DNA from: Escherichia coli
GTDB lineage: Bacteria; Pseudomonadota; Gammaproteobacteria; Enterobacterales; Enterobacteriaceae
Length of the DNA: 1,460 bases
NCBI RefSeq assembly: GCF_003334335.1
Contig: NZ_QOWQ01000106.1
Strand: one strand, 5' to 3'
The notes beneath the pieces were generated by a model that had not been told where the DNA came from, made no database searches, and was given only the letters and a program-made list of their open reading frames with translations. A program made the translations under genes and the position numbers. Positions 1-1,460 of the stretch are shown one piece after another (positions within the stretch are counted from its first letter, which is position 1; each line of letters opens with the position of its first letter).

Positions 1-173
1 GCCTGCCGGGGCAGCAGTATGATGAGGAGTCCGGCCTGTATTACAACCGCCACCGCTATTATGACCCGCTGCAGGGGAGGTATATCACTCAGGATCCGAT
101 TGGGCTGAAGGGGGGATGGAATTTTTATCAGTATCCGCTGAATCCGGTTCAGTATATAGATTCAATGGGACTG
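1..173 (+). other. Rhs core C-terminal hyperconserved region, including the DPIGL motif (codons at 93-107) and the terminal PxxxxDxxGL-type motif [10 protein letters not shown] (144-173) that marks the core/CT boundary
   Basis: Direct translation. GC-rich (about 60% by hand count over 1-120) compared with the rest of the window. Confidence 0.85.
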
Positions 174-632
174 GCATCAAAATATGGACACTTAAATAAT
201 GGCGGATATGGAGCGAGACCCAACAAACCGCCTACGCCCGATCCAAGTAAATTGCCGGACATAGCGAAACAATTAAGACTGCCATATCCTATTGACCAGG
301 CCAGTAGTGCGCCTAATGTTTTCAAAACATTCTTCAGAGCATTAAGCCCTTACGACTACACACTGTATTGCAGGAAGTGGGTAAAACCAAATCTGACTTG
401 TACGCCACAGGATGATTCCCAGTATCCAGGGATGGATACAAAGACAGCAAGTGATTACCTGCCACAGACAAATTGGCCAACAACTCAATTACCACCAGGA
501 TATACTTGTGCAGAACCCTATTTATTCCCAGACATTAATAAACCCGATGGGCCAGCAACAGCAGGGATAGATGATTTGGGTGAAATTTTAGCTAAGATGA
601 AACAGAGAACATCGAGAGGAATAAGAAAATGA
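1..632 (+). CDS. Rhs-family (YD-repeat) polymorphic toxin, 3' end only (5'-partial; reading frame begins at position 3; stop TGA 630-632). Encodes the end of the conserved Rhs core plus a variable C-terminal toxin domain of unknown activity. May correspond to an orphan rhs fragment such as E. coli K-12 ybfO, but this cannot be confirmed from the window.
   Basis: Frame 3 is open from position 3 to 632 with no stop. Translation begins [57 protein letters not shown], which is the hyperconserved Rhs core terminus (YYDPxxGRYxxxDPIGLxGGxNxYxY...PxxxxDxxGL). The six-frame track starts this ORF at ATG 165 only because that is the first Met; the conserved Rhs sequence upstream shows the gene continues beyond the 5' edge of the window. 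Confidence 0.92.
174..629 (+). other. Variable Rhs C-terminal (CT) toxin domain, about 152 aa, activity unknown
   Basis: Sequence after the DSMGL boundary: [152 protein letters not shown]. It is rich in Pro, Tyr and Thr, has 3 Cys, and shows no nuclease (HNH, His-Me), deaminase or ART motif that I can recognise by eye. Lower GC than the core. Confidence 0.7.
614..620 (+). promoter_or_regulatory. Shine-Dalgarno sequence (GAGAGGA) for the downstream immunity-like CDS
   Basis: GAGAGGA at 614-620, 8 nt upstream of ATG 629; lies inside the 3' end of the Rhs CDS. Confidence 0.55.
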
Positions 633-685
633 AAAGAGTTTTGTTCTTTTTGCTGATGATATTTGTTAGTTTTGGTGTTATAGCT
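629..685 (+). other. Predicted signal peptide (19 aa) of the immunity-like protein; probable SPase I cleavage after VIA
   Basis: [19 protein letters not shown] followed by DCE. No canonical lipobox, because the residue before Cys is Asp, so a lipoprotein is unlikely. Confidence 0.6.
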
Positions 686-1198
686 GATTGCGAAATACAA
701 GCTAAAGATCATGATTGTTTTACTATTTTCGCTAAGGGTACTATTTTTTCCGCGTTTCCTGTCTTAAATAATAAAGCCATGTGGAGATGGTATCAGAATG
801 AGGACATCGGTGAGTATTATTGGCAAACAGAACTGGGTACATGTAAAAATAATAAATTCACACCAAGCGGGGCGAGACTCTTAATTCGCGTCGGGTCACT
901 ACGCCTTAATGAAAATCATGCCATCAAAGGAACGTTGCAGGAGTTGATAAATACAGCAGAAAAAACGGCGTTTCTCGGCGATCGGTTTAGAAGTTATATA
1001 AGAGCGGGTATCTATCAAAAAAAGAGCAGTGATCCAGTTCAGTTGTTGGCAGTCCTTGATAATTCAATCATGGTAAAATATTTTAAAGATGAGAAACCAA
1101 CTTATGCTCGAATGACAGCACATCTCCCGAACAAAAATGAGTCTTACGAATGTTTAATAAAGATACAGCATGAACTAATTCGTAGTGAAGAGAAATAA
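629..1198 (+). CDS. ybfC: Putative Rhs immunity protein (RhsI-like), 189 aa, with N-terminal Sec signal peptide; predicted periplasmic. Resembles E. coli K-12 YbfC in length and context (tentative).
   Basis: Complete ORF ATG 629 to TAA 1196-1198 with an SD 8 nt upstream. The start overlaps the Rhs stop (ATGA at 629-632), the usual arrangement of toxin/immunity pairs. N-terminus [21 protein letters not shown] has a positive n-region, a hydrophobic h-region and a V-I-A signal peptidase I site. Position immediately 3' of an Rhs CT domain. The gene symbol rests on recalled length (189 aa) and neighbourhood (rhs fragment upstream, H-rpt transposase downstream), not on a verified alignment. Confidence 0.8.
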
Positions 1199-1357
1199 AA
1201 TCTCTTCCTGAGAAAACAAATTAATCATTGTGAAAAATTATATAACTCATGGAATAGGTGTTTATTTTGCGTTCCATTTGCAGGGAAAGATCACGTAACG
1301 CTACTTTTTTGTACTAAATAATTCGAATTTTAAGTTCAACAATTGAGATACTACTTA

Positions 1358-1388
1358 TTGTCTAAAGCTGTTTTTCATAGCTTATACA
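1358..1388 (+). promoter_or_regulatory. Candidate sigma70-like promoter upstream of the transposase gene (speculative)
   Basis: TTGTCT at 1358-1363 (4/6 match to TTGACA) and TATACA at 1383-1388 (4/6 match to TATAAT) with about 19-bp spacing, in an AT-rich spacer. Weak match; this may simply be AT-rich sequence. Confidence 0.15.
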
Positions 1389-1412
1389 TGATCAAATACT
1401 CCTTACATAAAT

Positions 1413-1418
1413 AAGGTG
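1413..1418 (+). promoter_or_regulatory. Shine-Dalgarno sequence (AAGGTG) for the transposase CDS
   Basis: AAGGTG at 1413-1418, 5 nt upstream of ATG 1424. Confidence 0.5.
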
Positions 1419-1423
1419 AACAA

Positions 1424-1460
1424 ATGGAACTTAAAAAATTGATGGAACATATTTCTATTA
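1424..1460 (+). CDS. H-repeat-associated (ISAs1-family) transposase, N-terminal start only (3'-partial, runs off window)
   Basis: ATG 1424 followed by MELKKLMEHISI, which matches the N-terminus of E. coli H-rpt / ISAs1-family transposases (YhhI, YdcC, YbfD-type) as I recall it. Good SD upstream. Only 12 codons are visible, so the identification rests on a short recalled match plus the known association of H-rpt elements with rhs loci. Confidence 0.65.
   Translation, partial: MELKKLMEHISI

Follow-up and report, generated by a model that had tools for sequence, protein, structure and literature searches.

Where does an Rhs toxin act when the protein encoded directly behind it carries a signal peptide? 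This question is raised by a 1,460-nucleotide stretch of Escherichia coli DNA (assembly GCF_003334335.1, contig NZ_QOWQ01000106.1), hereafter the window, in which the 3' end of an Rhs core gene is followed by a C-terminal toxin domain (CT) and by the overlapping gene ybfC. Rhs effectors belong to the most widespread weapons used between bacteria, and the targets of those characterised are nearly all cytoplasmic. A recent preprint predicts that Rhs and PAAR-Rhs effectors act 'almost exclusively intracellularly' (bioRxiv 10.1101/2024.02.26.582050). The location of an immunity protein has been used as an indicator of the compartment in which its effector finds the target (PMC6833914), and secreted immunity proteins go with surface-acting toxins (PMC3482391).

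An earlier note on this DNA, made from the letters alone, had held that Rhs toxins mostly act in the cytoplasm and are countered by cytoplasmic immunity proteins, a statement that the literature supports (PMC3482391; bioRxiv 10.1101/2024.02.26.582050). From the signal peptide of the downstream protein it had concluded that this CT acts in the periplasm or on the envelope, and the exported-type partner that we found conserved in six loci supports that conclusion in silico. The reading that we favour, with moderate confidence, is that the window contains the tip of a polymorphic Rhs effector together with its cognate exported immunity gene, and that the CT acts in the periplasm on the envelope. 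The gene names ybfO and ybfC were known before, as was the label 'putative secreted protein' given to ybfC in a transcriptome paper (PMC6033998). A literature search found no functional studies of ybfO or ybfC, and the sole in silico treatment, in a paper on strain EDL933, reported weak threading matches (VipE with a template modelling score of 0.574; a tetratricopeptide repeat motif with E = 0.21). What is new here is an uncharacterised CT family and an uncharacterised immunoglobulin (Ig)-like family of predicted periplasmic immunity proteins.

The Rhs core end and the toxin domain

The window opens with 57 codons of the 3' end of an Rhs core open reading frame (ORF; positions 3-173, plus strand, as are all genes described below). 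Its translation contains the aspartyl autoprotease/core-end motif DPIGL (93-107) ... DSMGL (159-173), and by this DPxGL-(x)n-DxxGL core end the ORF belongs to the Rhs family. In NCBIfam, residues 1-57 correspond to positions 1205-1261 of the 1261 positions of RHS_core and to positions 20-76 of the 76 positions of TIGR03696 (Rhs_assc_core; 72.7 bits versus a cutoff of 32.5). Both matches stop exactly at the L of DSMGL, and the start of the CT is therefore placed at nucleotide 174. The coordinates and the boundary at 173/174 given in the earlier note are thus exact. The window itself includes only the last 57 core codons; the complete carrier is found in strain E2865, where a full-length 1,399-aa 'RHS element core protein' ends in exactly the CT of the window and matches DUF6531 (E = 4.5e-17) and RHS_repeat within its first 500 aa, thus having both the full-length shell and the N-terminal plug.

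The CT (174-632, with the stop codon at 630-632) consists of 152 aa and, as the earlier note had described, is rich in proline (13.8%) and tyrosine (6.6%) with three cysteines. Its reading frame and that of ybfC are both intact in the window. In the alignment of CT relatives, conservation is absent from the first ~40 residues, a Pro-rich linker (~174-290), and sets in with a core of ~115 aa (~288-629). The core retains C66, C76 and C112, W69 and many aromatic residues and prolines, as well as two invariant carboxylates, D/E61 (18/18 sequences) and D134 (19/19). The alignment has no conserved His column; the single His of the E. coli CT lies outside the conserved core. The highest mean Kyte-Doolittle hydropathy over 19 residues is 0.14, so that the CT has no membrane-spanning hydrophobic segment, and no N-terminal translocation or transmembrane element was found in it. 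In all six loci compared below the domain is basic, with an isoelectric point of 8.2-9.1.

A word-indexed search found 28 CT relatives, all from Enterobacteriaceae, and an exhaustive profile search of 1.84 billion representative proteins also gave 28 relatives, of which ~10 are distant (33-39% identity). Altogether the family is spread over Enterobacteriaceae, Betaproteobacteria (Comamonas, Dentiradicibacter) and metagenomes, and these searches placed it nowhere but at Rhs C-termini. Those relatives that reach upstream are C-termini of Rhs fragments with a DPxGL core end, while the others are short CT-only fragments. One further match (P0098, E = 2.8e-4, in a 2,084-aa protein) was weak and judged spurious. 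Two CTs from Phytobacter (P0015 and P0016) are devoid of the conserved C-terminal helix and end in ...LDAPRRTSNGRDR; a deletion or frameshift is the probable cause. One of them is named 'putative deoxyribonuclease RhsC' by its source, a name for which we found no evidence. In a Salmonella enterica protein with 29 member sequences (P0011), Cys76 is replaced by Tyr (KPNLIYTPW), and either this cysteine is dispensable or the toxin of that lineage is inactivated.

The earlier note had found neither protein assignable from sequence, and this remained so after wider searches. Single-sequence searches with the CT and YbfC against Pfam, NCBIfam and the Protein Data Bank (PDB) gave nothing below E = 0.01, and neither protein had a match in PHROGs. 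Profile searches with broadened alignments against the PDB, and against Pfam member by member, returned noise only (MAPK1, E = 1.5; Defensin_RK-1, 0.056; Phytase, 0.1). When nine divergent CT carriers were compared with PHROGs and NCBIfam, all matches fell in the Rhs core part. The AlphaFold2 model of the CT is poor, with a predicted local distance difference test score (pLDDT) of 59 and a predicted template modelling score of 0.38. It has an amphipathic C-terminal helix at 132-149 (hydrophobic moment 0.53), at the end of which stands a basic R-K tail that is conserved.

The terminal G-x-R-K codons of the CT hold the Shine-Dalgarno sequence of ybfC and the A of its ATG in four of the six loci. 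These dual-coding sites are located at 611-632 in the window and at 4957-4981, 4714-4738 and 746-770 in three of the distant loci (L002, L005 and L010, respectively). The conservation of G-x-R-K may thus in part reflect a dual-coding constraint. A basic R-K or R-R end is also kept in both loci that have no ATGA overlap.

YbfC is the conserved partner of the toxin domain

The gene ybfC (629-1198) encodes 189 aa and is translationally coupled to the CT: at the junction (614-632) its ATG (629-631) overlaps the Rhs stop codon (TGA, 630-632) as ATGA, and its Shine-Dalgarno sequence, GAGAGGA (614-620), lies inside the last CT codons. Contigs of five distant CT loci (L002, L005, L006, L008 and L010) were retrieved and compared with the window. 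In all five, the next gene after the CT encodes a YbfC homologue of 188-207 aa, so that a homologue stands directly downstream of the CT in 6/6 divergent loci from Gamma- and Betaproteobacteria. The two genes overlap by 4 bases in four loci (E. coli, L002, L005 and L010) and by 14 bases in another, and are separated by 1 nucleotide in the last.

An all-against-all BLAST comparison of the neighbours showed the YbfC homologue to be the sole gene common to the loci. A third conserved gene, which might have been an alternative immunity candidate, was not present among these neighbours, and the E. coli locus contains no candidate for a cytoplasmic immunity protein. Since YbfC is the only conserved neighbour downstream of the CT in six divergent loci, it is, by the co-occurrence expected of polymorphic toxin/immunity pairs, the predicted cognate partner of the CT. 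In Comamonas sp. BIGb0152 (L005), a second YbfC paralogue directly 3' of the cognate copy (5404-5976; 47% identical) has its own signal peptide and looks like an orphan immunity gene.

Predicted export and fold of YbfC

The first 19 codons of ybfC (629-685) encode a predicted signal peptide, called from rule-based measures and from its conservation across 24 close and 6 distant homologues. The N-terminus starts with MKR (two basic residues), continues with a 10-residue hydrophobic core (mean Kyte-Doolittle hydropathy 3.46) and has V-I-A at positions -3 to -1 of a putative signal peptidase I site before D20-C21. This combination of n-region, h-region and small residues at -3 and -1 is that of a Sec substrate cut by signal peptidase I, and export is predicted accordingly. 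The same pattern was found in 21 close and 6 distant full-length homologues, which have a basic n-region and a hydrophobic core with a mean hydropathy of 2.35-3.5, and it persists in relatives of no more than 20-35% identity. Four distant homologues have their cleavage-type sites (ASA|M, AIA|N, AFA|E and LYA|E) 5-10 residues before the first Cys. Taken together, these features indicate that YbfC is almost certainly exported to the periplasm.

Mature YbfC (686-1198; 170 aa plus stop), the candidate immunity protein, contains four cysteines, C21, C30, C72 and C175. Every full-length member of the family has C30 and C175, while C21 and C72 are either both present (E. coli-like proteins, L002 and L010) or both absent (both L005 copies, L006 and L008). 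From this paired occurrence we infer the disulfides C30-C175 and C21-C72 and hence an oxidising compartment. The few invariant columns of the broad alignment include C30, W54 and Y173-x-C175, which by sequence resemble the canonical Cys-Trp-Tyr-x-Cys pin of V-type sandwiches. The AlphaFold model of YbfC is an Ig V-like beta-sandwich, with pLDDT below 50 for residues 1-18. The signal peptide with its predicted cut before DC and the four mature cysteines described in the earlier note are thus confirmed in the sequence, and the disulfide-bonded periplasmic protein that it proposed is supported by sequence conservation and structure prediction.

The likeness of YbfC to immunoglobulin V-set domains appears to be structural only. 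Fold searches retrieved generic Ig-like sandwiches and uncharacterised relatives in the AlphaFold database, and no known immunity or inhibitor family. The relatives found there by Foldseek come from Salmonella, where one bears the name 'Periplasmic protein', and from Paracidovorax, Delftia, planctomycetes and Lentisphaera. Judged by predicted structures, the Ig V-like immunity family may reach Comamonadaceae, planctomycetes and Lentisphaera. Another Rhs C-terminus in the same array (L002 1-2425 and L004 3-1611) is followed by a 259-aa ankyrin-repeat protein with a lipoprotein-like N-terminus (LALPFVGAC), perhaps a further case of an Rhs toxin whose immunity protein is exported.

Proposed mode of action

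In the proposed mechanism, the Rhs shell would encapsulate the unfolded CT, and the aspartyl autoprotease would free it by cleavage after DSMGL. By analogy with other effectors, a type VI secretion system (T6SS) would bring the Rhs cage into a neighbouring cell. The CT would then be released into the target periplasm, fold there, probably with a disulfide formed from its three conserved cysteines by the target's Dsb system, and damage an envelope target. In sibling cells YbfC would be exported by Sec, cut by signal peptidase I at VIA|DC and oxidised to an Ig V-like beta-sandwich, in which C30-C175 would be the pin and C21-C72 an additional bond. YbfC would bind CT delivered by a sibling 1:1 in the periplasm and neutralise it. 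Encapsulation, autoproteolysis and delivery are taken from established knowledge of Rhs and T6SS effectors, and periplasmic action and binding by YbfC come from the present analysis. Because the partner is almost certainly exported, the toxin probably acts on the envelope and not on DNA or RNA.

The architecture of the window is that of enterobacterial Rhs/RhsI modules, such as RhsA-E of E. coli, RhsA/B of Dickeya, RhsA of Enterobacter cloacae and Rhs-main/orphan of Salmonella: a GC-rich core ending in DPxGL...DxxGL, a variable AT-richer CT and a small coupled downstream gene, with orphan copies displaced downstream and an H-repeat/ISAs1 element at the end. However, the characterised members combine nuclease, NADase, ADP-ribosyltransferase (ART) or deaminase CTs with cytoplasmic immunity proteins, whereas the present CT belongs to no described family and its partner is of the exported type. 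Exported immunity proteins of periplasm-acting T6SS effectors are themselves of a well-known kind (PMC6833914; see also PMC6899460 and a preprint on Tae5/Tlde1). The window follows the same logic as the Tae/Tai amidases, Tge/Tgi glycoside hydrolases, Tle/Tli lipases, Tlde1/Tldi1 and VgrG2b, and the conserved cysteines of the CT suit folding in an oxidising compartment. In contrast to these pairs, the CT has no detected sequence or fold relationship to such enzymes, the catalytic His that they require is absent, and delivery would be by an Rhs cage instead of as Hcp or VgrG cargo. A periplasm-acting pair is rare among Rhs toxins, uncommon but precedented.

The conserved residues suggest which chemistries the CT may use. 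They argue against HNH/His-Me and His-dependent RNase, Cys-His amidase and L,D-transpeptidase activities, as well as against Ser-Asp-His lipases, HExxH peptidases and helical-hairpin pore formers. Three groups of candidates were set aside on comparison with the CT: the known periplasmic T6SS enzyme classes (Tae, Tlde1, Tle and metallopeptidases), whose His motifs and folds were not recovered; pore-forming CTs of the Rhs or colicin type, whose hydrophobic helices it does not have (maximal 19-residue mean of 0.14); and nuclease-type CTs (HNH, REase, EndoU, Tox-55 and others), for which no family or fold match was obtained, the CT model being poor. Carboxylate-based, for example glycosidase-like, chemistry, a metal site built from cysteines, and non-catalytic binding are possible. 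Given no conserved His, no hydrophobic helix, the conserved aromatic residues and prolines, and the invariant D/E61 and D134, our low-confidence suggestion is that the CT works in the periplasm as a soluble enzyme or binder with carboxylate-type chemistry, aimed at peptidoglycan or its lipid-linked precursor. It is also conceivable, if doubtful, that the CT represents an undescribed class of periplasmic antibacterial toxins: a His-free, disulfide-dependent domain of ~115 aa whose fold and envelope target would both be new, delivered in an Rhs cage and countered by a dedicated Ig V-like immunity family. If so, Rhs cages would prove to supply the periplasm with soluble toxins, and a further Achilles heel of Gram-negative envelopes might come to light.

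Several points weigh against periplasmic action on the cell wall by a T6SS-delivered CT. The cell-wall suggestion is based on the exclusion of other chemistries and on residue composition, and CT toxicity, YbfC export and CT-YbfC binding are predictions. The CT has an odd number of cysteines, three, for which a metal site is equally feasible. Across the six loci, the divergence of the CT and that of the immunity protein are not correlated (Spearman rho 0.13, p = 0.65), and apart from their co-occurrence the two thus give no sign of co-evolution. In the E. coli carrier, PAAR is matched no more than vestigially (E = 0.24, residues 2-20) and no vgrG adjoins the Rhs gene, and delivery by the T6SS is for these reasons taken over from related effectors. 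Given the poor CT model, a known fold, including a nuclease, may have escaped recognition; a cytoplasmic nuclease fold was also the outcome that the earlier note had named as speaking against envelope action, and no family match and, with this model, no fold match of any kind came up. Outside E. coli, the distant locus L002 adjoins VgrG-like (Gp5_trimer_C), DUF2169 and PAAR-like genes. In a Dentiradicibacter-like contig (L008), an ORF at 3545-4867 starting with MGRSAARLGDGVSHG... resembles the PAAR-type N-terminus of the next full-length Rhs, which hints at PAAR-Rhs carriers for the module in other taxa.

The main alternative to a cell-wall activity is membrane perturbation by the basic, amphipathic C-terminus of the CT. 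Here the CT would be a non-enzymatic toxin whose basic disulfide-stabilised domain and amphipathic C-terminal helix attach to the inner membrane on its periplasmic side, or to a membrane protein, and collapse the membrane potential, in function resembling Tse5, Ssp6 or defensin-like peptides. We regard this as unlikely. The domain is indeed small and basic in all six loci, helix 132-149 is amphipathic with a conserved R-K tail, and few polar residues of the catalytic type are conserved. There is also a precedent, as Tse5 (PA2684) of Pseudomonas aeruginosa is an Rhs effector with a pore-forming, envelope-acting CT (PMC10684867), so that Rhs cages can deliver envelope toxins. The CT of the window differs from that of Tse5 in that none of its segments is hydrophobic enough to cross a membrane, and the prediction for YbfC is a soluble beta-sandwich. 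Tse5-CT inserts into the inner membrane by hydrophobic helices and is countered by a membrane-embedded immunity protein. Integral membrane proteins are also the usual form of immunity to pore-forming T6SS toxins, which counts against a membrane-active CT. Moreover, part of the conservation of the terminal G-x-R-K is attributable to the overlapping Shine-Dalgarno sequence and start of ybfC. Action in the cytoplasm, on an unrecognised target or through a nuclease- or NADase-like fold, with YbfC intercepting the CT in the periplasm or serving a non-immunity role, seems rather improbable. It draws on the poor CT model and on the deoxyribonuclease name that one source gives to a Phytobacter homologue, a name for which no evidence was found. 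No search, however, gave a nuclease, deaminase or ART family or fold match, the CT has neither a conserved His nor an N-terminal translocation or transmembrane element, and a strictly conserved, coupled partner of the exported type with no cytoplasmic candidate beside it in E. coli is the pattern of periplasmic effectors.

The two remaining explanations concern YbfC and the module as a whole. YbfC might be an outer- or inner-membrane lipoprotein, lipidated at Cys21 after cleavage by signal peptidase II, as some close homologues are lipobox-like in the cleavage region (AMASC, AIAAC, VISAC, SALAC). The residue before Cys21, however, is Asp in E. coli (VIAD-C) and Asn, Thr or Tyr in other homologues, all of them residues that a lipobox does not permit at position -1, and V-I-A-D-C does not match the [LVI][ASTVI][GAS]C consensus. 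In addition, a Cys is missing there in 4/6 distant homologues, in which AxA sites precede the first Cys by 5-10 residues, and Cys21 co-varies with Cys72 as a disulfide partner would. The AxA sites and the Asp before Cys21 point to signal peptidase I processing for the family and make the lipoprotein very improbable. There is a slim chance that the module is a functionless relic, a displaced orphan tip and a leftover gene kept by linkage. The K-12 ybfO is annotated as a pseudogene devoid of the Rhs N-terminus, the K-12 rhsC itself has a different CT, IS1 or IS5 insertions lie in or beside the module in several genomes, and an ISAs1 element abuts it. Against this, both frames are intact in the window, the CT is borne by a full-length Rhs in E2865 and probably in EDL933, 65% of complete E. 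coli genomes have the module, and motifs, cysteines and signal peptides are kept in distant homologues. Transcripts of rhsC and ybfC were also reported to be differentially expressed in Shiga toxin-producing E. coli (PMC6033998).

A periplasm-acting CT would constitute a new toxin activity against the cell envelope and a tractable case in which an Rhs cage delivers a soluble toxin to the periplasm. The orphan ybfC of K-12 would gain a role as well, namely protection from rhsC-type attack by other E. coli. In practical terms the module offers a clearly delimited lead that is easy to test in a model organism; conceptually it holds no surprise.

Genomic occurrence and surroundings of the module

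Over its 1,460 bases the window shows 100% identity to the rhsC locus of many E. coli chromosomes. Of 5,426 complete E. coli genomes, 3,510 (65%) cover at least 80% of the window. Thus, the module occurs in about two thirds of complete genomes, including K-12 and enterohaemorrhagic E. coli. This coverage, together with CT and YbfC homologues that keep their features down to 20-45% identity, argues that the module is not a chance arrangement. In strain E2865 the gene order is Rhs, ybfC and a decayed ISAs1 (H-repeat) transposase gene, and the locus lies between kdp/ybfA and ybgA/phr. In K-12 MG1655 the same sequence forms the displaced orphan ybfO, annotated as a pseudogene, and ybfC, downstream of rhsC-ybfB; rhsC-ybfB carry another toxin tip, and the ybfO CT pairs with ybfC. 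The rhsC-specific primer of the EDL933 study is the reverse complement of window positions 215-234, so the EDL933 'RhsC' probably carries the tip of the window, and the protein called 'RhsCI' (z0853) in that paper is probably YbfC.

The core has a GC content of 55%, the CT one of ~44%, and the stretch around the ybfC start and beyond one of 30-37%; this drop is the classic composition break of Rhs elements. Downstream of ybfC follows an AT-rich spacer (1199-1280; GC ~30%). In a Megablast search with 1199-1423, full-length matches were obtained in 2,736 genomes, and the remaining copies match only from query position ~82. E. coli DNA is accordingly multi-copy from ~1281 on, and 1199-1280 is a single-copy part specific to the module. 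The 5' end of an ISAs1-family (H-repeat) element occupies 1281-1460 (plus strand), as indicated by annotations and by the multi-copy matches, with the ybfQ/ybfD transposase gene beginning at 1424 (MELKKLMEHISI...). This element is outside the toxin/immunity module and sets its downstream boundary.

Scans of the window for Rfam families, promoters and terminators, and repeats gave nothing above chance. Two inverted repeats were recorded. One of 13 nucleotides (92% complementary) has its arms 549 nucleotides apart, in the CT (476-488) and in ybfC (1038-1050), and is probably due to chance. The other, of 16 nucleotides (88% complementary), has one arm just before the ~1281 boundary (1265-1280) and the other across the ybfQ start codon (1421-1436). 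In several E. coli genomes the window is matched in two pieces around an IS1, IS903B or ISKpn26 insertion, which marks it as a recurrent target of insertion sequences.

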